A stretch of DNA of 32,000 nt from Synechococcus sp. A15-24 (lineage in GTDB: Bacteria; Cyanobacteriota; Cyanobacteriia; PCC-6307; Cyanobiaceae): the NCBI RefSeq assembly GCF_014280195.1, contig NZ_CP047960.1, positions 1,260,001 to 1,292,000 on the forward strand. Reading direction: 5' to 3'. Below are positions 2,447-14,262 of this stretch, one piece after another. Under the pieces are notes generated by a model, which was given only the letters and a program-made list of their open reading frames with translations, had not been told where the DNA came from and made no database searches. Every line of letters starts with the position of its first letter. The first letter of the stretch is position 1. The position numbers were made by a program, and so were the translations under genes.

Positions 2447-3181
2447 ATGCACATGCCCCTTGAGGACACCCTCGGTCTCAACCTCCTCGCCGCCAACCAG
2501 CACCAGGCGGAGCACAACCACGAGCATTTCCAGGCCTGGAACGTGCTCTGCCTCAACCTAATGAGCAGCCCCGGTGCCGGCAAGACCGCCCTGCTCGAAC
2601 GCTCCCTGCCGGCGTTGGCCGCCAATCACAAGATGGCGGTGCTGGAGGGCGACATGACCACCCAGCTCGATGCCGAGCGTCTGGAAGCCGTCGGCATTCC
2701 AGTGGTGCCGATCACCACCGGTCGGGCCTGTCATCTCGATGCCGCCATGGTGAGCGGCGGACTCACTTTGCTGAAGCAACGCCTGGATCCAACCCAGCTC
2801 GATCTGCTTCTGGTGGAGAACGTCGGCAACCTTGTTTGCCCCGCTGAATTCGATGTGGGGGAACACCACAAGGTGGCTCTGCTCAGCGTCACCGAGGGCG
2901 ACGACAAACCGCTCAAGTACCCGCTGATGTTCCGCCAGGCGGATGTGGTGCTGATCACCAAGGTGGATCTGCTGCCCCACCTGCAGGTGGAGCTGGCGGC
3001 GATCCGCCGCAACATCCTCAGCATCAACCCCAACGCCACGGTGATCGAGGTCTCCGCCCTCAGCGGCGAAGGCCTAGATGTCTGGCACCAGTGGGTGCGG
3101 CAGGCCCTTGCCGATCGCACCGCCGTCTCCTCTGCTGCAGCCAGGGCTGCAGACCAGTCCCCCGCTCTGGCCACCGCCTGA
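2447..3181 (+). CDS. hypB: HypB-type nickel-binding GTPase
   Basis: It has a His-rich N-terminus (HQAEHNHEH), a P-loop SSPGAGKT, and [10 protein letters not shown] and TKVDLL motifs typical of HypB/UreG-class G3E GTPases. Confidence 0.9.
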
Positions 3182-3217: not shown

Positions 3218-4219
3218 ATGACCAAGCAACTCCGCAATCTCCTGATCGCCGGCCTGGCGATCGTTCTGGCCGTCGCCTGTTCCAAGCCCTCAACCCCAAC
3301 TGTGGGCGGCACCCCGATCGTTCTCGGCTACAGCAACTGGGCCGGTTGGTGGCCCTGGGCCATCGCCGTTGAAGAGAAGCTGTTCGAAAAGAATGGCGTG
3401 AATGTAGAGATGAAGTGGTTCGACGGCTACGTGCAGTCGATGGAAACCTTCGCCGCCGGCAAGATCGACGGCAATTCCCAGACCCTGAACGACACCATCT
3501 CCTTCCTGCCAGGCGAGAACGGTGGTGAAGTTGTTGTGCTGGTGAACGACAACTCCGCCGGCAACGACCAGATCATTGCTGACGCCTCGATCACCTCCAT
3601 CGCAGAGCTCAAGGGCAAGACGGTGGCCGTTGAAGAGGGCGTCGTAGACGATTACTTGCTCAGCCTTGCTCTCAAGGACGTTGGCCTCAGCCGTGAGGAT
3701 GTGGTGATCAAAGGCCTGCCCACCGACCAGGCCGCCACAGCCTTTGCCGCCGGGCAGGTGGATGCCGTCGGCGCCTTCCCGCCATACACCGGCACCGCCA
3801 TGCAGCGCGAGGGTGCCCGGGTGATCGCCAGCTCCAAGGAGTACCCCGGTGCCATTCCCGATCTGCTCACCGTGAGCGGTGATCTGATCAAGGAACGGCC
3901 CGACGACGTTCAGAAGATCGTCAAGACCTGGTGGGACGTGCGCGACTTCATGGAGAAGAACCCCGAGAAATCAGAGGCAATCATGGCCAAGCGGGCCGGC
4001 ATTCCCACAGAGGAGTACGAGCAGTACAAGGACGGCACCCGTTTCTTTTCGATCGACGAGAACCTGGAAGCCTTCAGCGAAGGCGAAGGCATGCAGTACA
4101 TGCCCTTCGCCTCGGAATCGATGGCGAAATTCATGATCTCCGTTGGCTTCATTCCCGAGAAGCCGGACATGAGCAACCTGTTTGATTCCAGCTTCATCAA
4201 GAAGGTCGCCGAATCCTGA
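3218..4219 (+). CDS. ABC transporter substrate-binding lipoprotein, NitT/TauT (NMT1/SsuA-like) family
   Basis: It has a signal peptide with a lipobox (LAVAC). The overall composition is NMT1/SsuA-like, and the gene is followed by a matching permease and ATPase. Confidence 0.85.
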   Translation: MTKQLRNLLIAGLAIVLAVACSKPSTPTVGGTPIVLGYSNWAGWWPWAIAVEEKLFEKNGVNVEMKWFDGYVQSMETFAAGKIDGNSQTLNDTISFLPGENGGEVVVLVNDNSAGNDQIIADASITSIAELKGKTVAVEEGVVDDYLLSLALKDVGLSREDVVIKGLPTDQAATAFAAGQVDAVGAFPPYTGTAMQREGARVIASSKEYPGAIPDLLTVSGDLIKERPDDVQKIVKTWWDVRDFMEKNPEKSEAIMAKRAGIPTEEYEQYKDGTRFFSIDENLEAFSEGEGMQYMPFASESMAKFMISVGFIPEKPDMSNLFDSSFIKKVAES

Positions 4220-5046
4220 TGACTGCCACGGCCGCCGCTGCATCCAAGGGGAGGGGCTCAGGGCTCCTCTCTCTGCTCACCCTGGGGGCCACCCCATCGG
4301 GGGCCGTGCGTGGCGGCCTGCAGGTCGCCTCCCTGCTGATCCCACTTTTGGCCTGGGCGGCCATCGCCTCCCTGGGCCTGGTAGATGAGAAGTTCCTGCC
4401 ATCACCGGGGGCGGTGTTCCGCTCCCTGGCTTCGATGGCCGAAAGCGGCATCCTGTTCCAGGACATCGTCGCCAGCACCGGTCGGGTGTTCGCTGGCTTT
4501 CTGCTCGCCACCGTTCTGGCGGTTCCGATCGGCATCTGCATGGGGGTGTACCCAGCGGTGTGCGCCATGTGCGAACCCCTGATCGCCATGCTCCGCTACA
4601 TGCCGGCAGCAGCGTTCATCCCCCTGCTGATCATCTACCTCGGCATCGGCGAGGAACCCAAGATCGCCCTGATCTTTCTCGGCACGATCTACTTCAACAT
4701 CCTGATGGTGATGGATGCGGTGAAGTTTGTTCCCAAGGAACTGATCGAAACCACCCTCACCCTCGGCGGCCGCAGCCGCCAGGTGCTGGTGCAGGTGGTG
4801 GCCCGTTACAGCCTGCCCAGCATCCTCGACACCCTGCGCATCAACATCGCCACCTCCTGGAACCTGGTGGTGGTGGCCGAACTGGTGGCGGCCGAAGTGG
4901 GTCTGGGCAAACGGATTCAGCTGGCCCAGCGCTTCTTCCGCACCGATCAGATCTTCGCCGAACTTATCGTGCTGGGGTTGATCGGCTTCGCCATCGACAT
5001 GGGCTTCCGTCTGCTGCTGCGCCTCAGCTGCCGCTGGGCGGTCTGA
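4219..5046 (+). CDS. ABC transporter permease, NitT/TauT family
   Basis: The protein is polytopic and hydrophobic. Its ATG overlaps the upstream TGA by 1 nt (TGATG). It carries an EAA-like loop region. Confidence 0.85.
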   Translation: MTATAAAASKGRGSGLLSLLTLGATPSGAVRGGLQVASLLIPLLAWAAIASLGLVDEKFLPSPGAVFRSLASMAESGILFQDIVASTGRVFAGFLLATVLAVPIGICMGVYPAVCAMCEPLIAMLRYMPAAAFIPLLIIYLGIGEEPKIALIFLGTIYFNILMVMDAVKFVPKELIETTLTLGGRSRQVLVQVVARYSLPSILDTLRINIATSWNLVVVAELVAAEVGLGKRIQLAQRFFRTDQIFAELIVLGLIGFAIDMGFRLLLRLSCRWAV

Positions 5047-5049
5047 ACC

Positions 5050-5805
5050 ATGGAACTGCTGGTTCAGAACCTCTGCAAACAGTTCGGCGACAAAGCCGTT
5101 CTCGAGGACATCAACTTCTCGATGCAATCCGGTGAATTCATCACCTTAGTCGGCAGTTCCGGCTGCGGCAAGAGCACCCTGCTCCGGCTGATCGCCGGCC
5201 TGGATCACCCCAGCGGGGGCCGGATCCACGTCGATGGATCCCCCGTTGAAGGGCCCGGCCCCGACCGGGGCATGGTGTTTCAGAAATACAGCCTCTACCC
5301 CTGGCTGACTGCCGCCGACAACGTCGCCTTCGGCATGCGGCTACAGGGCATGACGTCGGCTGACGTGCGTAATCGCACCGCCTATTTCCTCGAGGTGGTG
5401 GGTCTGCAGGATGCAGCCACCAAACTGCCGAGGGAACTCTCCGGCGGCATGCAGCAACGGGTGGCTATCGCCCGCGCCCTGGCCACCAACCCCAGCGTGC
5501 TGCTGCTGGATGAACCCTTCGGTGCTTTGGACCTGCAGATCCGCGAAACAATGCAGGAGTTTCTGCTCCAGCTTTGGCAACGCACCGGCCTGACAGTGCT
5601 GCTGATCACCCACGACGTGGAGGAAGCCCTGGTGCTGGCTCAACGCGTGCACGTACTGGCACCGAACCCGGGCCGGATCATCCGCTCGCTCGAGGTGACC
5701 CTGAACAAAAGCGATTTAGATCAGCTGCGCCTCAGCGCTGAGTTCCTGCAGCTGCGCCGCAGTCTGGCCACCAGCCTGCGGCAGCTGGAACCAACCATCG
5801 GGTGA
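5050..5805 (+). CDS. ABC transporter ATP-binding protein
   Basis: Walker A is GSSGCGKST, the signature is LSGGMQQR, Walker B is LLLDEPF, and the H-loop is ITHD. Confidence 0.9.
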   Translation: MELLVQNLCKQFGDKAVLEDINFSMQSGEFITLVGSSGCGKSTLLRLIAGLDHPSGGRIHVDGSPVEGPGPDRGMVFQKYSLYPWLTAADNVAFGMRLQGMTSADVRNRTAYFLEVVGLQDAATKLPRELSGGMQQRVAIARALATNPSVLLLDEPFGALDLQIRETMQEFLLQLWQRTGLTVLLITHDVEEALVLAQRVHVLAPNPGRIIRSLEVTLNKSDLDQLRLSAEFLQLRRSLATSLRQLEPTIG

Positions 5806-6857
5806 TGACGGCTCCGCAACGGTTTCTGCCGGCCCAGGCCTATACCGATCCGGAGTTGTATCGCTGGGACTGCAGCGGTTACGCCCAGCGCTACTGGCAT
5901 CCCCTGGTCGCTGGATCGGCCCTGCCGGCCGGCCACAGCCTGGCTCTAACCCTGCTGAATCAGCCCCTTCTGCTCACCCGAGCCGAGGACGGACTCCCCC
6001 GCGCCTTTCTCAACCGCTGCCCCCACCGCGGCGTGGCCTTCCAGCACGAACGCGATGGAGCAACCGCCTGCCGTCGCCTGATCTGCCCGTACCACGGCTG
6101 GACCTACAGCCTGGTAGGGGAGCTGCTGGCCGCGGCGCGCGAGCAGGGCTTCGATCACCCCTTCCATCGCCAGGACTGGCCGCTCCCTTCCCTGCCTTGC
6201 CGCGAGGATGGCCCCTTGATCTGGGTCGCACTCACCCAGGCGGTGACGCCCCTGGAGCAGCAGCTCGACCTGGTGCATCAACGGGTGGCGGACCTCTGGA
6301 CCCAGCCCCTGGATCAGGTGCGGATCCTGCAGCGCACCCTGTACTGCAACTGGAAGATCGCCCACGACAACACCCTGGACGACTACCACGTCGCCGTGGC
6401 CCATCCAACGACTCTGCACCGCGAACAGGGGCCGGTGCGCGATTACGCCCACCACACCACAGCCCTGGTGAACCTGCTGGTGACCCCCCACGCCGATGGC
6501 GGTTGCTTTCACACCTTTGGCCTGCCGCCCTGGCTACATCTGATCACCTGGCCGGACGGCCGTCTGGCGTTGTTGGAGTTTCTGCCCCTCAGCCTCGACA
6601 GCTGCTGCATGCAGTTGCGGCTGTTCGCTCCCAACGCAGCCAGCGGCGAACCGCCGACGGATGCGGCCAACAAAGCCTGGTTGAAAGAGCTGCTGGCCTT
6701 TTTGGAAGAGGACCAGACCCTGGTCGAATCCGCTCAGCGCGGCTACCGCAGTGGACTCGTGCCCGGTCCACCCCACGGGCTCGAGCAACGGATCATCCAT
6801 TGGCAGGAGATCTACCGACAGGTGCTGCCCAAAGCGCTGGCCCAATCGCTCAGCTGA
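5805..6857 (+). CDS. Rieske [2Fe-2S] non-heme iron oxygenase, alpha-subunit type
   Basis: The Rieske motif is CPHRG-x16-CPYHGW. The mononuclear iron motif is DDYHVAVAH. The ATG at 5805 overlaps the ATPase stop (TGATG); the track's GTG start is at 5802. Confidence 0.85.
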   Translation: MTAPQRFLPAQAYTDPELYRWDCSGYAQRYWHPLVAGSALPAGHSLALTLLNQPLLLTRAEDGLPRAFLNRCPHRGVAFQHERDGATACRRLICPYHGWTYSLVGELLAAAREQGFDHPFHRQDWPLPSLPCREDGPLIWVALTQAVTPLEQQLDLVHQRVADLWTQPLDQVRILQRTLYCNWKIAHDNTLDDYHVAVAHPTTLHREQGPVRDYAHHTTALVNLLVTPHADGGCFHTFGLPPWLHLITWPDGRLALLEFLPLSLDSCCMQLRLFAPNAASGEPPTDAANKAWLKELLAFLEEDQTLVESAQRGYRSGLVPGPPHGLEQRIIHWQEIYRQVLPKALAQSLS

Positions 6858-6894: not shown

Positions 6895-7635
6895 TCATAC
6901 CGGAATCGGTGAGCGCAGCTCAGCATGCAGCGCATCCCAGAAACGCTTGCGATCCGCAATCACCTGGCGCTTCACCTGCTCCACCCGTTGCATCGCCTTG
7001 GCGTCCTCCCCCACTAGGGCCAGCACCATTGCCTCGGCCAACGGGCCATGGCTGTCGCCATCGAGGGCGATGTGGCGTTCGAGGTACCAGCACAACGTTG
7101 GACAGGGCAACGCCAGGGCCTGCAGTCGCTTCAGCAGCGCACGGAACAGATCCGGCACCAACAGCTCCCGGCCGTAGGCAAACGCCGCAGCCAGGACATG
7201 GCTCTCACCGTCCTGAATCAGCACCTGCGTGGTGGTGAGAAAACGGGCTGCAGCGGGCGGGATCCGCGGGTGTTGCACAGCGCTGCCAAGATCACCGGCC
7301 ATCGCCTGCTGCAGCACCGCGTCGATGGCCGAGGTATCGGCACCGATCTCCACCATCGCACGGCGGTAGATGCCGAAATGGGACAGATGCAACGGGCCAC
7401 CGAGGGCCTCAGGCAGACAATCACACTCCTCCTCAGCCACCAGGCTGTTGATCAACCCGGCGCTGCGCGGATGCTGGGGCGGCACCCAGGGAACACCGGA
7501 TGGTGCCAGGTGCTGCTGCAGCGCCTTGAGCAACAACATGAAGTCCCACACCGCAAACACGTGGTGTTCAACGAACACCCGAAGATCTGCGATCGAAACA
7601 ATCGCCTCCGGCAAGGGATGGCGCTGGAGATCCAT
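6895..7635 (-). CDS. DUF3050-like protein (heme-oxygenase-like helical fold family), last gene of the - strand operon
   Basis: 246-aa ORF beginning MDLQRHPLPEAI...VFVEHHVFAVWDFMLLLKAL, which I recognise as DUF3050-like. Its start is 2 nt after the upstream stop. Confidence 0.65.
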   Translation of the reverse strand: MDLQRHPLPEAIVSIADLRVFVEHHVFAVWDFMLLLKALQQHLAPSGVPWVPPQHPRSAGLINSLVAEEECDCLPEALGGPLHLSHFGIYRRAMVEIGADTSAIDAVLQQAMAGDLGSAVQHPRIPPAAARFLTTTQVLIQDGESHVLAAAFAYGRELLVPDLFRALLKRLQALALPCPTLCWYLERHIALDGDSHGPLAEAMVLALVGEDAKAMQRVEQVKRQVIADRKRFWDALHAELRSPIPV

Positions 7636-7637
7636 CG

Positions 7638-8105
7638 TCAGAGGCCCAGTTCCGTCAGACCCGGGAAATCATCGGGTCTTGGGCCATCACCCCAGGTGAA
7701 CAGGAGATCGCCCTCCGCGATCGGCACGTCGTTGATGCTGGCCTCACGCCGGCGCATCAACCCGTTCTCGGCAAATTCCCAGTTCTCGTTGCCATGGGCG
7801 CGAAACCACTGCCCCTCGGAGTCATGCCACTCATATTGGAAACGCACAGCGATGCGGTTACCGGAATACGCCCACACTTCTTTGATCAATTTGTAGTCCA
7901 GTTCCTTCGCCCACTTGCGTTGCAAAAAAGCGAGAATCTCAGCCCGGCCGTGGATGAATTCACTGCGATTACGCCAGAAACTGTCCTCCGTATAGGCCAA
8001 TGAAACCTTGTCTGGATCCTTGCTGTTCCATGCATTTTCGGCCATCCGTGCCTTCTGCTGCGCGGTTTCGAGGGTGAACGGTGGAAAGGGAGGTTTTCCG
8101 GTCAT
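7638..8105 (-). CDS. DUF1348-like / NTF2 (SnoaL-like) fold protein
   Basis: The sequence [21 protein letters not shown]...[11 protein letters not shown]...[42 protein letters not shown] matches the DUF1348 pattern as I remember it. Confidence 0.7.
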
Positions 8106-8484: not shown

Positions 8485-9462
8485 TCATCCGCCACAGCCG
8501 AATCCGGTGAGTCCGCTCGCCCCCTCCCAGAGGCAATCCAACGCCCCGGAGCGCTGCAGCAGCACCCGGCATTCACCGGTGCTGAAGCGACCGATCCGAC
8601 AGCAGATCAGGTCCGGATCGCCCTGCAGCATCCGCACCAGGGTTGGAGTCCGGGACGGATCCACGGCCAGCAAGTAGCCGAAGCTCGGGAAACAGCTGAG
8701 CCAGGCCTGTTCCTCCACCCCATCAGGGCGGTCCACCGCATCCAGATCGATGCTGAGCTCCAAGCCACACGCTTCGGCAAACATCACCGACGTTCCCGTC
8801 AGTCCACCCATGCTGATGTCCTTGGCAGCGCGCACCAGGCCCTCAGCCGCCAGTGCCGGCAGCAGGCCCAGATGGGAGCGCAGTCGAGCTGGGGTGGCAT
8901 GGGTGGCCGCATCCCAGAAGGGGTAATGGCGGTAGAAGGCTCCGCTTTTGTTCACGAGCATCCACAGTTCGTCGCCGGGTGCTGCAACCCGGGCGGAGAG
9001 CACCGGCCCCTCTGCCACCCCAAGAACGGCAACCGACAAGGCTGTGTAGGGACTCTGCAGATTGGAATGCCCCCCCACCATCGGCACTCCGAAGCGCTCA
9101 CAGGCGAATCGCATACCCTCCAGCAGAGGCTGCAACGCATCGGCACCACCACTCCAGACACTGTTGACCAACGCCAGCGGTCGACCGCCCATCGCCGCGA
9201 TGTCGCTCAGATTCACCAGCACACCGCTCCAGCCGGCAAACCACGGGTCCTCCTCCACCAGCCCAGGATGCATGCCCTCACAGGCCAGCAACAGCTGGCC
9301 GTTCTCGCGAGGCAGCAGAGCGGCATCATCCCCCAGCATCCCCGCTGCACCAAGCTGTGGGAAAGGCTGGTGGCAAAACATCCCGGCCGCTGGCTGAATG
9401 TCGCGTTTGGCCAGAAGACCGCTGTGCAGCCGCAGCCCATCCATCAGCTCGGCAAAGCTCAT
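8485..9462 (-). CDS. AIR synthase-related (PurM/ThiL/HypE-fold) protein of the Nit1C cluster
   Basis: It shows the PurM-superfamily pattern (GDDAALL, ...NLSDIAAMGG...). The ATG at 9462 forms an ATGA overlap with the GNAT stop. Confidence 0.8.
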   Translation of the reverse strand: MSFAELMDGLRLHSGLLAKRDIQPAAGMFCHQPFPQLGAAGMLGDDAALLPRENGQLLLACEGMHPGLVEEDPWFAGWSGVLVNLSDIAAMGGRPLALVNSVWSGGADALQPLLEGMRFACERFGVPMVGGHSNLQSPYTALSVAVLGVAEGPVLSARVAAPGDELWMLVNKSGAFYRHYPFWDAATHATPARLRSHLGLLPALAAEGLVRAAKDISMGGLTGTSVMFAEACGLELSIDLDAVDRPDGVEEQAWLSCFPSFGYLLAVDPSRTPTLVRMLQGDPDLICCRIGRFSTGECRVLLQRSGALDCLWEGASGLTGFGCGG

Positions 9463-10160
9463 GCGGCAAGGGATGGCAGGAGCGAACATGACGGCCGCCG
9501 CTCCCGCGACGGCGCGTAGTACTTGAGATCGGCCTGCATCAGGTGATGCCGGATGCCACGGATCTCGAGTTCCTCAATCGAGGCCCAATTCAGACGGCGA
9601 AAGAAACGCACGTTCTGAATCTGCACCGTGGCCATGAAACGATCACAGCCCCAGCCGTTGGCGGTGGTGACCGCCTTCCAGATCAACCCCTTGCCGATCT
9701 GGTTGTGACGGCGAAAGTCGCTGTGCACCCCGAGCCGTCCGCCATACCAGAGCCGTGGTTCGGTCTCCACGATCCGAACCACACCCACCACCTGCGCCTC
9801 CGGACCGTCCTCCTTCAGACCGTTTTCCTCCCGGCGCTCCTGCTCCAGCTCGGGGTCGCATCCGTGATGCAGGGCCGCGATCGGACAGGCGATGCGGTCG
9901 AGTTCATCCCGATCGGACTGTTCGAACACGTGCTGCTCCTCGCAGAAGATGCTGCGCCGCAACGACCAGTAACCCGCGATCAGGGGCGAATCGGGACGCA
10001 GCAGGTGAAAGCTGAACCGATCCGAACTGGCGGTGGGCGACAGGCGGAAATCATCGGCGTCGATGCCGATGCCAGCCCGCACCGAAGGGGTGAACAGGCT
10101 TGGGGCGGAGCTGATGCTGCGGCCGATGCCACGGCTGCTGGGATCGAGACAGAACACCAT
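9459..10160 (-). CDS. GNAT-family N-acetyltransferase of the Nit1C cluster
   Basis: It has a GNAT acetyl-CoA loop (RRHNQIGKGL) and beta-bulge region. The ATG at 10160 lies 2 nt after the radical SAM stop. Confidence 0.8.
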   Translation of the reverse strand: MVFCLDPSSRGIGRSISSAPSLFTPSVRAGIGIDADDFRLSPTASSDRFSFHLLRPDSPLIAGYWSLRRSIFCEEQHVFEQSDRDELDRIACPIAALHHGCDPELEQERREENGLKEDGPEAQVVGVVRIVETEPRLWYGGRLGVHSDFRRHNQIGKGLIWKAVTTANGWGCDRFMATVQIQNVRFFRRLNWASIEELEIRGIRHHLMQADLKYYAPSRERRPSCSLLPSLAA

Positions 10161-10162
10161 GG

Positions 10163-11254
10163 TCAGGCCGCCTGCTCGAACAGCGACAGCGCCGAACAGG
10201 CTCCACATTTGGCGCAACCGGCCGACATCGCCTCGGAGCGCAGATCTCCTTGGTGCAGCAGCTCGGCAACCCCCTTGTAGACGTCGACCATGAAGGCTGT
10301 GTCCGGTGCCGGATGGTGCTCCAAGGGTGTGCCGGAGATCGGCACAAACGGAACCACAAACGGGTAGACCCCCAGTTCGATCAGGCGGCGGCTGCAGTCG
10401 AGCAGTGCCTCCCGGCTGTCGCCCAGGCCGGCTAGCAGATAGGTGGACACCTCTCCCCGCCCGAACACGGCGACAGCATCGGCGAAGGCCGCGTAGTAAC
10501 GCTCGAGGCTGAGCTCCGATTTGCCCGGAAGGATGCGACGCCGCACCTCCGGCTCCACCACCTCGAGGTGCATGCCGAGGCTGTCGATTCCCGCAGCCTT
10601 CATCCGCTCGTACCAGATCGGATCATCGGGGGGTTCGCACTGCCCCTGGATCGGCAGATCGACCCGACGCTTCACCGCCGCGGCCGTCTCGGCCATCAGC
10701 CGGGCGCCGCGGTCATCGCTGTTGGGGGTGCCGGTGGTCATCACCAGCTGCTTCACACCATCCAGGCACACCGCAGCTTCCGCAACCTCGGCCACCTGCT
10801 CCGGGGTCTTGCGGATCACCGTGGCGCCGTCCTCAAGGGTCTGCTCGATGGCGCAGAACTGGCAGGACTGGGAGCGATCTCGGAAGCGGATGCAGGTCTG
10901 CAACAGCGTGGTGGCCAGCACATCTCGGCTGTGCAGCAAGGCGATGGAGCGGTAGGGGATCCCCTCCGCCGTTCTCAGGCCATAGAAGGCCGGTTCATCG
11001 GTGGTGGTCACCACCGGCAGGGCGTCCTGCTGAGGACCGGTCAGGGTCAAGCCGTCACCACGTGCCGCCAGGCTGTACGCCGATGAGCCGGAGACGTCGT
11101 TGTAAACGGGCACCATCACCGTGGTGCCATCCACATTCAGGGCCCTGTGGTCAGAGGGTCCAGCCCCGCCGCGACGGCCCCGGTTTCCCTCCAGTGGTTC
11201 GGCCCGAACCCCCTTCACCTGCAGTTCGGTCACCAGGCGTCCGAGCTCAGACAT
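10163..11254 (-). CDS. Radical SAM-family protein of the Nit1C cluster (MSMEG_0568-like)
   Basis: It has a cysteine cluster C121-x9-C131-x2-C134 ([18 protein letters not shown]) and TIM-barrel-like downstream motifs. It overlaps the nitrilase stop by 8 nt. Confidence 0.75.
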
Positions 11255-12263
11255 GGTTGATCTCCTCGATCACATGGGACATCCCGGCGGCCAATGACCT
11301 TTCGGCCATCGACGTTTCGGATGGAACCGGATCGCTCGCCATCTCCTGCATCGCTACGGCCGCGTTGCGATTGATCCGCAGCGACAACAGTTCCGGACGG
11401 CTGTAATGGCCGACGCTGTCCATCATTCGCTTGCGCTTGGTGATCAGGGCCAGATCGAGTTCGGCGATGGCCAGGCCTTCACCGTCGGGCAAGGGACCCG
11501 CCAGGTAGCGGCCCTCAGGACTGATCACAGCGGTGTGACAGCCCCCTTGAAACGCCTTGTGCAACGACGCATCTGGCGTGATCGCCGCATGGTCATCCGG
11601 ATCCAGCCATCCGGTGGAGCAGATCACGAAACAGCCGGCCTCCAGGGCGTGATGCCGCATGGTGACGGCGGTCTGCTCGCTGAAGATCGGCCCGACCAGC
11701 GACCCGGGGAACTGGGCGCAGTGGATCTCCTCGCCCTGGACCATCAACGCGTAGCGCGCCAGGGGGTTGTAGTGCTCCCAGCAGGCCAACGCCCCGACCC
11801 GACCAAGCGGGGTGGACACCACCGACAGGCCGGAACCGTCCCCCTGCCCCCACACCATCCGCTCGTGATAAGTGGGAGTGATCTTGCGGCGCTTGAGAGC
11901 GATCTCGCCGCAACTATTTAACAGCAACTGGGTGTTGTAGAGCGTGCCACCGTCCCGTTCGTTCACCCCCAGCAACACCTGCATGCCGTGCTGCCGTGCG
12001 GCCGCTGCCACCGCATCCGTGACCGGTCCGGGCACCACCACAGCCTGGTCATAGAGCGCCAGGTGGGAGCGCCCCATGCGAACCGGGGGCTCAACAAATG
12101 AGAAGTAGGGGTAATAGGGCAGGAACGTCTCCGGAAAGACGATCAGCTCAACGCCTTCGGCCGCCGCTTCGGCCATCGCGTCGAGCACCTTCTGAAGAGA
12201 TCCATCCAGGCTGAACAGCACGGGACGGATCTGGGCAGCGGCAACTTTGACAGTGGTCACCAT
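11247..12263 (-). CDS. Nitrilase (branch-1 nitrilase, Nit1C/Nit6803 type)
   Basis: The Glu-Lys-Cys triad contexts are VFPETF, RRKITPT and LACWEH. Length is 338 aa. Confidence 0.9.
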
Positions 12264-12283
12264 GAAATAGGTACGACGACGAC

Positions 12284-12766
12284 TCAGAGCGTCCAGGTGT
12301 CGAGGATGAAGGCCCCTTCCTTGCGATGCATCAGCACGATGTCGAGCACATCAAGGGGATTCACCGGGGTGATGCCCGGCATCAGCGCCTTCTCGCTGTG
12401 TCCGTAAAGCGCCTGCAGAGCGAAGCGACAGGCGTACACCTTTCCCCCCTGATCCATGAACTTCTGTAGCCGTGCGTTGAAGTTCAGGTGACCATCAAAG
12501 GCGGCATCACCGAGCTTGGGGAATCCACGCATCACACCGAGGGTGACGCCAGGGCCATAGAGCAGAACAGAGGTTTCAAACCCTTTGGTAATCAGACGGC
12601 TGGCCTGCAAAAGATTAACCAGGCCAATAGAACCTTCGAAAGCAACGGTGTGAAACGTGACCAAGGCCTTTTCACCCGGCTCAGCCTTCACATCGGGAAA
12701 GACTTTTTCCTCGTAGTCAACAAGATAATCCCCCGGCTGGTTGGCGGGACGATCGACGACAGGCAT
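12284..12766 (-). CDS. DsrE-like small protein, first gene of the Nit1C cluster (MSMEG_0572-like)
   Basis: The start is set to the ATG at 12766 ([10 protein letters not shown]...), giving 160 aa. The assignment rests on its position immediately upstream of the nitrilase and on a DsrE-like alternating pattern. Confidence 0.65.
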
Positions 12767-12897
12767 GTGAAGAAACCATAAGCACCCTAAGATTGGCTCC
12801 GGTCGGCCCACAAAAAATGTACGAAATACGACCAAATTCGAGACTGAATCAAACTGGCTGACAGCGGGAGCGCAATCAAATTCGGTGGCCTTCGCTA

Positions 12898-12947
12898 CAA
12901 CACAAGTGTTAATTTCAAGAAAAATAGAAATCTTGAGTCTTGTGTTG
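12898..12947. promoter_or_regulatory. Nested A/T-rich palindrome in the divergent promoter region (candidate operator or 5'-UTR hairpin)
   Basis: CAACACAAG (12898-12906) pairs with CTTGTGTTG (12939-12947). Inside it, TCAAGA (12915-12920) pairs with TCTTGA (12931-12936). The palindrome ends 4 nt before the flavoprotein ATG. Confidence 0.5.
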
Positions 12948-12951
12948 ATTG

Positions 12952-14262
12952 ATGCTGAATAGCGCGCATGATGGCGCCCGATTCAAGGCCGATCATGCGG
13001 TTGTGGTGATCGGAGCCGGTCAGGCCGGACTTTCGGTGGCCTACCAGTTGCAACAAAGGGGCATCCGTCCTGTGGTGCTGGAAAAGCACCGCATCGGATA
13101 CGCCTGGGATCAGCAACGCTGGGATTCTTTCTGCCTGGTCACCCCCAACTGGCAATGCCGCTTGCCGGACTTCCCCTACGACGGCAACCAGCCCGAGGGG
13201 TTCATGCCCAAGGCAGAGATCGTGGCGTACCTGCAACGCTTCGCGCGGCACGTGGGTGGAGATGTGCGCGAGGGGGTCGCCGTTCAACGGCTAACCCCGA
13301 AAGGCAGTGGTTATCGGCTAAGCACCAGCGAAGGCGAGATGGAGGCCGAACATGTGGTGGTGGCCACCGGCGGGTATCACGCCCCCCGGCGCCATCCCCT
13401 GGCCGAACGGCTGCCGGCCTCCGTGCTCCAACTCGATGCCCGTGCTTACCGCAACCCGGCGGCTCTACCGGAAGGCCCCGTATTGGTGGTGGGCAACGGC
13501 CAGTCCGGCAGCCAGATCGCGGAGGACCTGCACCTGTCCGGCCGCACCGTGCACCTCAGTGTGGGCAGCGCCCCTCGATCCCCACGGGTGTACCGCGGCC
13601 GGGATGTGGTCGATTGGCTGGACCGGATGGGCTACTACGACATGCCGATCAGCGACCATGCCGACCCCCGCAGCGTCCGCGCCAAAACCAACCACTTCCT
13701 CACCGGTCGCGATGGTGGCCGTGAGATCGATCTGCGCCAGCGCGCCACCGAGGGCATGCGTCTGCATGGCCGTCTCGCAACCATCGCCACTGACCACATC
13801 GGCTTTGCCGATGATCTCGCCGGCAACCTCGATCAGGCCGATGCGGTTTATTGCCGCATCCGCAGCAGCATCGACAGCTGGATCCAGCAGCAGGGCATCG
13901 AGGCCCCCCTCGAGCCCCCCTATTCACCCTGCTGGCAACCATCAGCGATGGCCGACCCCGGCATCGATCTCAGCCGGGATCCACTCGCTGCGGTGATCTG
14001 GTGCACCGGGTACCGCAGCGACTTCAGCTGGATCGATGCTCCGGTGTTCGATGGTGCCGGTCTGCCGGCCCATGAGCGTGGGGTCACCCAGAGCGCGGGG
14101 CTCTACTTCCTTGGCCTGCCCTGGCTGCACACCTGGGGATCCGGTCGCTTCTGCGGCGTCAGCGACGATGCCGACTACCTCGCGAGGCTGATCAGTCTGC
14201 GGCTGCAACGCCGCGATGCCAGCCAGGAGCGGCTGGAGTGCACCGCGATCCTGGGCTCCTGA
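12952..14262 (+). CDS. FAD/NAD(P)-binding flavin-dependent oxidoreductase (MSMEG_0569-like), divergent from the Nit1C operon
   Basis: It has two dinucleotide-binding motifs, [12 protein letters not shown] and [12 protein letters not shown], a layout resembling class-B flavoprotein monooxygenases. ATG is at 12952; the track's TTG is at 12949. Confidence 0.85.

Follow-up and report, generated by a model that had tools for sequence, protein, structure and literature searches.

A Group-V-like Rieske oxygenase linked to the guanidine hydrolase operon of picocyanobacteria

A 32,000-nucleotide stretch of the Synechococcus sp. A15-24 genome (contig NZ_CP047960.1; the whole stretch is called the window below) carries a guanidine assimilation operon whose last gene encodes a Rieske non-heme-iron oxygenase. 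This enzyme is best classed as a Group-V-like Rieske monooxygenase that has an active-site signature of its own and is dedicated to the operon of gdmH, the gene of the Ni-dependent guanidine hydrolase. With a probability of roughly 0.45, we propose that it hydroxylates the carbon on a guanidino nitrogen of an imported substituted guanidine, freeing guanidine for GdmH and for the riboswitch that heads the operon. The association of the Rieske gene with the guanidine cluster has already been published and the enzymatic hypothesis has not. The ligand of the guanidine riboswitch was identified in 2017, GdmH in 2021-22 and the demethylation of methylguanidine in 2025; to our knowledge, little has been learned so far about where guanidine comes from in nature. 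That the most abundant marine phototrophs have an oxygenase tied to their guanidine operon suggests a specific pool of substituted guanidines which these cells exploit.

The Rieske gene in the guanidine operon

The operon lies on one strand and runs from a Guanidine-I riboswitch through gdmH, hypA, hypB and the genes of an ATP-binding cassette (ABC) importer (substrate-binding protein, permease, ATPase) to the Rieske gene. Its elements and the catalytic motifs of the Rieske gene are as follows.

706-804, + strand: Guanidine-I (ykkC) riboswitch aptamer, operon leader (full-length match to Rfam RF00442: 87.6 bits, gathering score 63)
830-2020, + strand: gdmH, Ni-dependent guanidine hydrolase of the arginase family (Pfam Arginase, 2.8e-77)
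2024-2422, + strand: hypA-like Ni metallochaperone, ghaA (Pfam HypA, 4e-22)
2447-3181, + strand: hypB-like Ni GTPase, ghaB (NCBIfam TIGR00073 hypB, 281.7 bits, above cutoff)
3218-4219, + strand: NMT1/TauA-like ABC substrate-binding protein, gimA-type, of the guanidine importer (Pfam NMT1_2 and NMT1)
4219-5046, + strand: ABC permease (Pfam BPD_transp_1)
5050-5805, + strand: ABC ATPase (Pfam ABC_tran, 1.2e-34), stop codon TGA at 5803-5805
5805-6857, + strand: Rieske oxygenase alpha subunit of the Cyanorak CK_00002251 family, final operon gene (Pfam, profile, AlphaFold2, Foldseek)
6018-6101, + strand: Rieske [2Fe-2S] motif C72-P-H74 ... C94-P-Y-H97-G-W (translation; ligands invariant in 65 distinct orthologues)
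6369-6404, + strand: mononuclear-iron motif N189-T-L-D192-D193-Y-H195-V-A-V-A-H200, with bridging D192, Fe ligands H195 and H200, and family-specific D193 and T190 (translation, CntA alignment, conservation)
6711-6713, + strand: codon of D303, third Fe ligand, equivalent to CntA D323 (profile alignment to CntA; invariant)

The Rieske gene is an uninterrupted open reading frame (ORF) of 350 codons, and its 350-aa product is a Rieske non-heme-iron oxygenase alpha subunit with intact catalytic centres. Both Pfam domains, Rieske (PF00355, 5.8e-14) and Ring_hydroxyl_A (PF00848, 5.2e-15), match above cutoff, and translation and Pfam together confirm the complete oxygenase with CPHRG, CPYHGW and DDYHVAVAH motifs that a preliminary description of the window had reported. 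The [2Fe-2S] cluster is held by C72 and H74 (CPHRG) and by C94 and H97 (CPYHGW). The bridging D192 and the Fe ligands H195 and H200 lie in NTLDDYHVAVAH, and D303 sits within EEDQTLVESAQRG. In the profile alignment with the carnitine monooxygenase CntA, the triad H195/H200/D303 falls on H208/H213/D323 and D192 on the bridging E205. The Rieske ligands, the 2-His-1-carboxylate triad and the bridging Asp are all invariant across the 65 distinct orthologues. The AlphaFold2 model (mean predicted local distance difference test score 91.9, predicted template-modelling score 0.91) has the two-domain fold of a Rieske domain and a Bet v1-like catalytic domain, with a Foldseek probability of 1.00 against CntA, Stc2 and TPADO and template-modelling (TM) scores of 0.75-0.82.

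The start codon (ATG, 5805-5807) overlaps the stop codon of the ATPase gene by one nucleotide (TGATG), exactly as the preliminary description had it, and an in-frame GTG at 5802 offers an alternative start. An identical protein is absent from the assembly collection searched; the closest relative of the protein, with 88% identity, is encoded on a European Nucleotide Archive metagenome contig (P0001) and likewise shows an ATGA-type overlap. Such an overlap by itself would imply translational coupling to the ATPase. Of that earlier claim, the overlap in the window and a conserved tight linkage stand, while the exact overlap is not conserved in other loci. Downstream, the DUF3050 gene at 6895-7635 is convergent, which makes the Rieske gene the end of the unit and confirms its position as the last gene of a riboswitch-headed operon. 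Co-expression as the last cistron of a guanidine-inducible gdmH operon is predicted from the overlap, the spacing and the lack of a promoter or terminator consensus. The scan between the ATPase and Rieske genes found neither consensus but was uninformative, as was the scan 3' of the Rieske gene, where no significant hairpin was found (z = 0.5). RegPrecise predicts riboswitch control for the guanidinase cluster proper, and the Rieske gene is described separately, downstream of the cluster (PMC10119275).

Two genes converge on the Rieske gene at 6895-8105 (- strand), one for a DUF3050 protein (weak Haem_oxygenase_2 match) and one for a SnoaL-like DUF1348 protein; they are not parts of the system. 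We considered them as partners of the oxygenase, for instance as a lyase, and rejected them because they have no counterpart beside the Rieske gene at any related locus.

No beta-subunit gene was found in the window. Motif scans of all ORFs of at least 60 aa and Pfam searches of the large ORFs found neither a ferredoxin nor an FNR-type reductase within the 32 kb, in agreement with the earlier remark that no reductase partner is encoded nearby. The alpha-only monooxygenase would be supplied with electrons by a general donor of the cell, for which photosynthetic ferredoxin is the most plausible candidate.

The gdmH product is orthologous to Synechocystis Sll1077 (PMC10119275), and its ATG at 830 is the earliest in-frame start past the aptamer. 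Synechocystis homologues of the binding protein have a role in guanidine uptake (PMC12704784). The gdmH-ghaAB-gimABC operon of Synechocystis sp. PCC 6803 resembles that of the window in its riboswitch class, hydrolase, Ni chaperones and ABC importer (PMC12704784, PMC10119275), but it contains no oxygenase, the Rieske gene being specific to picocyanobacteria (PMC10119275). The statement in the preliminary description that the characterised guanidine hydrolase cluster lacks an oxygenase thus matches the literature, including a 2025 PNAS study of cyanobacterial guanidine assimilation that mentions no Rieske protein or oxygenase (PMC12704784).

Linkage to gdmH and constraint on the family

The preliminary description had proposed checking whether the Rieske gene co-occurs with the guanidine genes, and the association holds from both directions. 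From the Rieske side, the family profile was searched against one genome per species (185,579 species) and the operon proteins were then placed by tblastn. A Rieske orthologue of 38-59% identity is carried by 45 picocyanobacterial loci from Synechococcus, freshwater Cyanobium-type strains and Prochlorococcus, and in 45/45 it lies directly 3' of the gdmH-cluster ATPase gene wherever upstream DNA exists; at the other recovered loci the Rieske proteins fall under 35% identity and gdmH is missing from the vicinity. From the gdmH side, metagenome contigs were taken as informative when the ATPase gene was present and followed by more than 1.1 kb of DNA, and the Rieske gene was found in 27 of 37 such loci. 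Across 72 related loci, the Rieske gene starts -7 to +45 nt from the ATPase stop codon, always on the same strand, and its ORF is intact wherever the contig permits. This close same-strand spacing makes independent transcription, which had been named as a possible refutation, unlikely. The gene order gdmH/hypA/hypB/NMT1-type importer is common to at least 60 related loci.

The regulatory element is less uniform. Many loci of Synechococcus and Cyanobium have a Guanidine-I-like element 40-80 nt upstream of gdmH; subcluster 5.3 Synechococcus has a degenerate, sub-threshold match (L003 4913-5013, 23.9 bits), and no Guanidine-I riboswitch was found in the gdmH clusters of Prochlorococcus (L019 2300-3300, L022) even at a permissive threshold. 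Operon control thus seems to differ between lineages. Since Prochlorococcus keeps the Rieske gene without a detectable riboswitch, conservation is stronger for the linkage to gdmH than for the way the operon is regulated, and retention of the gene in these streamlined genomes speaks for a functioning connection with GdmH and against hitch-hiking. On this genomic pattern, the Rieske gene is judged to be functionally linked to guanidine assimilation.

The published record agrees with this linkage. Dore et al. (ISME J, 2023) described a cluster of speB2/guanidinase, hypAB and tauABC-like genes with a ykkC riboswitch upstream, and associated with it the Rieske family CK_00002251 (PMC10119275). The family shares Tara Oceans co-abundance modules with the guanidinase genes, with near-identical module correlations (PMC10119275). 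In the part of that record which lists 31 genomes, presence or absence of the Rieske gene matches that of the guanidinase genes in all but one, the exception being a single-cell genome with the Rieske gene and no other cluster genes (PMC10119275). For the Rieske protein, the authors propose only Fe as a cofactor, which possibly explains the absence of the cluster from low-iron waters (PMC10119275). Our literature search found no paper that gives the enzyme a substrate.

The family is narrow, with 16 clusters (50% identity) at E<=1e-30 among 1.84 billion representatives, and by these searches it stands clearly apart from other Rieske oxygenases. Within lineages, the median of pairwise dN/dS is 0.07 for GdmH, 0.11 for HypB, 0.11 for the permease, 0.12 for the binding protein, 0.19 for the ATPase and 0.33 for the Rieske protein. 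The Rieske gene is under purifying selection and has never decayed, yet it is the least constrained member of the operon; GdmH is 85-97% identical across the picocyanobacterial loci.

Kinship and active-site signature

The preliminary description had compared the protein with N-dealkylating Rieske enzymes, and sequence, profile and fold all bear out the link. Its best matches among solved structures in a single-sequence search are the stachydrine demethylase Stc2 (3e-19) and CntA (1e-18), a 44-sequence profile gives CntA at 8e-35 (residues 9-310) and Stc2 at 1e-29, and Foldseek with the AlphaFold2 model ranks CntA first (TM ~0.8), followed by Stc2. The best NCBIfam match is GbcA, glycine betaine monooxygenase, whose 85 bits are far under the cutoff of 670. 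All of these best matches belong to Group V, and at just 20-23% identity the placement of the protein closest to this group is provisional. Group V Rieske oxygenases break a C-N bond by hydroxylating the carbon next to a nitrogen that carries a positive charge (PMC7948474).

The residues by which the subclades of Group V are distinguished differ here. Clade Va (CntA, choline monooxygenase, OxyBAC) has an aromatic Tyr or Phe at CntA position 203, which makes a pi-cation contact, and clade Vb (GbcA/BmoA, Stc2) has Asn (PMC7948474). Some Group V members carry a Cys-x-x-Cys pair by the Fe site, and CntA Cys206 lies 4.4 A from the substrate ammonium (PMC10952381). The equivalent positions are:

CntA Tyr203 (pi-cation residue in Va, Asn in Vb): Thr190 here, invariant in the family
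CntA Cys206/Cys209 (pair by the Fe site): Asp193/Val196 here
CntA Glu205 (bridging carboxylate): Asp192 here

The family thus has neither the aromatic residue of Va nor the Asn of Vb at position 203, and D193-Y-H-V196 replaces the C206-Y-H-C209 of CntA. Because the diagnostic residues of both subclades are absent, the protein is not simply another betaine or carnitine enzyme. Its own signature, NTLDDYHV, is present in 119/119 family members carrying the motif. The invariant D193 would suit a hydrogen-bonding cation such as guanidinium. As a marker of guanidinium it was rejected and is kept only as a weak indication, since Asp is universal in the family but also occupies the CntA-206-equivalent position in 6/76 more distant relatives, outside guanidine contexts.

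Comparison with characterised enzymes places these differences in context. CntA (Group Va; PDB 6Y8J, 6Y9D) is likewise alpha-only and of similar size, has Rieske and mononuclear-iron centres joined by a bridging carboxylate, and hydroxylates the carbon beside a cationic nitrogen before C-N cleavage. The window protein departs from it in overall sequence (22-23% identity), at Tyr203 and Cys206/Cys209 and in the change of the bridging Glu to Asp; no CntB-type reductase gene adjoins it, and its context is guanidine rather than carnitine. Stc2 (PDB 3VCA) and GbcA/BmoA of Group Vb perform oxidative N-demethylation via a hemiaminal, the reaction type proposed in the preliminary description, but the window protein is 60-70 residues shorter and carries Thr in place of the Vb Asn at CntA 203. 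In Stc2 the substrate carboxylate ligates the iron, and the window protein gives no sign of the same. SxtT and GxtA of saxitoxin biosynthesis (PDB 6WN3) are also cyanobacterial alpha-only Rieske oxygenases (~334 aa) with guanidinium-bearing substrates. They are, however, far more distant (2.8e-16 across the Rieske domain only) and belong to a biosynthetic toxin cluster.

These relationships bear directly on an unlikely, though the most serious, alternative, namely a Group-V-type oxygenase whose substrate is some nitrogen compound other than a guanidine, such as a methylated amine or a betaine, and whose gene lies in a nitrogen-scavenging island and is merely co-expressed with the guanidine genes. 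The closest characterised relatives do use carnitine, stachydrine and glycine betaine, the Rieske gene evolves fast, the operon of the window adjoins a second nitrogen-scavenging cluster (nitrilase, radical SAM), and freshwater clusters gain further nitrogen-related genes, including glutamine synthetase type III (GS-III)-like ones. The residues that recognise quaternary ammonium are nevertheless all replaced, by the invariant T190, D193 and V196 (PMC7948474, PMC10952381), and no betaine- or amine-specific transporter accompanies the gene. Moreover, an independent pathway would hardly explain why every picocyanobacterial copy of the gene found is at a gdmH cluster.

Independent guanidine links were also sought among distant Rieske homologues, and none was found at L042, L047, P0135, P0137 or P0168. 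Outside the family, the closest Rieske relative from a cyanobacterium (35% identity, 428 aa; L042 749-2895, a cyanobacterial bin) directly follows an NNMT/PNMT/TEMT-type N-methyltransferase gene with no gdmH nearby, and the two may form a different pair related to methyl-amines. The homologue in L047 (Acidimicrobiales) adjoins an FAA hydrolase, a short-chain dehydrogenase/reductase and a PotD-type ABC transporter, those in P0135 and P0137 lie in unrelated contexts, and that in P0168 sits inside a polyketide synthase/non-ribosomal peptide synthetase (PKS/NRPS) cluster; the contig of a further homologue, P0131, ends too close to the gene to reveal its neighbours.

Proposed function and locus variants

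The closest functional analogue of the release of guanidine from a substituted guanidine is the Guanidine-I-controlled operon of Vreelandella boliviensis, which encodes an ABC importer, a guanidine carboxylase pathway, the 2-oxoglutarate (2-OG) dioxygenase MgdH and the lyase MgdL (PMC12508155). MgdH and MgdL convert methylguanidine via N-(hydroxymethyl)guanidine into guanidine plus formaldehyde (PMC12508155). As in the window, an oxygenase stands inside a Guanidine-I operon together with an ABC importer and guanidine degradation, and there it frees guanidine. The riboswitch of Vreelandella discriminates against methylguanidine (PMC12508155), so induction by the product of a front-end enzyme is an accepted logic. 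MgdH differs in being a 2-OG/Fe(II) dioxygenase unrelated to Rieske enzymes, in having a lyase partner, in feeding guanidine carboxylase rather than GdmH, and in its halophilic proteobacterial hosts. Pfam finds no 2-OG dioxygenase domain in the Rieske protein, and any similarity to MgdH would be functional only.

GdmH is described as acting with high specificity on free guanidine (PMC12186494); for substituted guanidines a front-end enzyme would thus be required before they reach it. In the proposed scheme, the oxygenase would hydroxylate the carbon attached to the guanidino nitrogen of the imported compound, for which the candidates are methylguanidine or a guanidino acid or sulfonate (guanidinoacetate, creatine, 4-guanidinobutyrate, taurocyamine). 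The hemiaminal product would decay to free guanidine and an aldehyde, and GdmH would convert the guanidine to urea and ammonium, so that substituted guanidines could be used as a source of nitrogen. The freed guanidine would also bind the riboswitch and raise expression of the whole operon, a putative positive feedback. The dealkylation idea of the preliminary description is the best-supported hypothesis; as a whole its interpretation is partly supported, and the substrate is hypothetical. If the scheme is right, it would add a substrate class and a recognition mode to the Rieske oxygenases, provide a second, independently evolved route from alkylguanidines to guanidine, and explain the absence of an iron-costly gene cluster from low-iron ocean regions.

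Several observations weigh against this proposal. Measured against marine Synechococcus, the Rieske protein of the window is 59% identical and GdmH 95%, and such fast evolution is consistent with a dispensable or shifting role. The Rieske gene is missing from 10 of the 37 informative gdmH clusters, all 10 with the freshwater-type binding protein; taken with the Synechocystis cluster, this means that guanidine assimilation itself is independent of the gene. The half-life of N-(hydroxymethyl)guanidine exceeds 1 h without the MgdL lyase (PMC12508155), so turnover of methylguanidine in particular would be slow; the window locus shows no evident lyase, although MgdL homologues were not searched for. 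Asp at the CntA-206-equivalent position occurs in a few distant relatives with no guanidine link, for example in a PKS cluster, and D193 is therefore not diagnostic; the mapping of pocket residues relies on an alignment at 22-23% identity. Import of compounds other than guanidine by the binding protein is putative, and the substrate is a prediction from sequence and context.

Two further functions also start from the guanidino group, and we consider both improbable. The enzyme could act on guanidine itself or an N-substituted analogue (hydroxyguanidine, aminoguanidine), N-oxygenating or detoxifying imported analogues that GdmH cannot hydrolyse. The predicted co-induction of the gene by guanidine through the riboswitch would suit this role, guanidine is toxic to cyanobacteria without GdmH (PMC12704784), and Rieske enzymes can N-oxygenate, according to a review (PMC12445004). 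Oxidising guanidine would, however, waste the very nitrogen that the operon serves to acquire, hydroxylation by the nearest relatives is on carbon and not on nitrogen, and no downstream enzyme is indicated for an N-oxygenated product. Alternatively, and with about as little likelihood, the enzyme could make guanidine from internal arginine or homoarginine, as the ethylene-forming enzyme and plant homoarginine-6-hydroxylases do, within a remobilisation of arginine- or cyanophycin-type nitrogen. Known guanidine-forming enzymes hydroxylate the carbon beside the guanidino group (PMC11018352), and a dedicated importer for substituted guanidines is only putative. Guanidine-induced production of guanidine from internal pools would nevertheless be a runaway loop, marine picocyanobacteria have other arginine routes, and the Rieske gene is joined to an import system. 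Finally, the protein could serve the guanidinase system as an Fe-S or redox accessory that oxidises no substrate. This is the only role suggested in the literature, and it is in keeping with the connection that Dore et al. draw between the gene and the lack of the cluster in low-iron ocean regions (PMC10119275). It is very improbable given the full catalytic domain (triad, bridging Asp, conserved pocket) invariant in 65 orthologues and a Synechocystis GdmH that works without the Rieske protein (PMC12704784).

Returning to the release of guanidine from substituted guanidines, freshwater clusters show further recruitment around gdmH. In freshwater Cyanobium-type loci, a GS-III-like gene (TIGR03105, ~570 bits; e.g. 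L011 5863-7227) lies between hypB and the binding-protein gene. Many freshwater loci also carry three extra genes ~1.2 kb 3' of the Rieske gene (e.g. L011 12293-15633), encoding a membrane di-iron oxygenase of the FA_desaturase family, a MetX-like alpha/beta hydrolase and a second GS-III-like protein. The best NCBIfam match of the trio oxygenase is GntB, the guanitoxin L-arginine gamma-hydroxylase, at a weak 45-51 bits against a cutoff of 380. At four loci (L099-L101, L114) the trio directly follows the ATPase gene and the Rieske gene is absent (L099 15087-18444; L114 15336-18522). A role of the GntB-like oxygenase as a non-orthologous replacement of the Rieske gene was rejected, since the two occur together at many freshwater loci. 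That oxygenases and gamma-glutamyl-ligase-like enzymes have repeatedly been recruited to gdmH clusters is consistent with the processing of compounds more complex than guanidine.

A broader and more tentative picture can be drawn. The family would represent a previously unrecognised Rieske type in Prochlorococcus, marine Synechococcus and freshwater Cyanobium, which recognises guanidinium via Asp instead of quaternary ammonium via a pi-cation contact and oxidatively frees guanidine from one or more abundant natural guanidino compounds, which would give the most numerous phototrophs of the ocean access to a pool of dissolved organic nitrogen. Freshwater lineages would use it within a larger multi-enzyme pathway together with the GntB-like di-iron hydroxylase, the alpha/beta hydrolase and the two GS-III-like ligases. 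We regard this picture as possible but doubtful.

Further variation was observed within the clusters. The stretch of ~1.2 kb that separates the Rieske gene from the desaturase-like one (L011 11026-12290 and equivalents) has no Pfam or Rfam match and may hold an unannotated gene or a regulatory region. Across loci L001-L160, the binding protein is of two types, a marine type (Synechococcus, Prochlorococcus) 77-95% identical to that of the window and a freshwater type at 42-48%, with GdmH still at ~90%; this suggests either that the importer was replaced or that its ligand specificity differs. In the metagenome loci L111 and L117, hypB runs straight into the permease gene with no detectable binding-protein gene between them, and L135 has a truncated hypB match; partial degradation or rearrangement seems to have affected these clusters.

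A second set of nitrogen-scavenging genes lies at 8485-14262 of the window, just downstream of the guanidine operon. It is similar to the picocyanobacterial nitrilase cluster of Nit1C type discussed by Dore et al.

8485-9489, - strand: AIR-synthase-related protein
9459-10217, - strand: ORF lying among these genes
10163-11254, - strand: radical SAM protein
11247-12263, - strand: nitrilase/CN_hydrolase
12949-14262, + strand: flavin monooxygenase-like protein

Other nitrogen-related elements were seen near the cluster in related genomes. In marine Synechococcus, Rfam matches to 5_ureB_sRNA (130-132 bits) lie ~8 kb 3' of the Rieske gene (L003 19105-19391, L038 18353-18639) and presumably mark a nearby urease gene cluster. 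Glutamine-II aptamers (58 bits) occur a few kb downstream of the guanidine cluster of Prochlorococcus (L019 14401-14463, L022 16278-16340), which places that cluster in a nitrogen-regulated neighbourhood.

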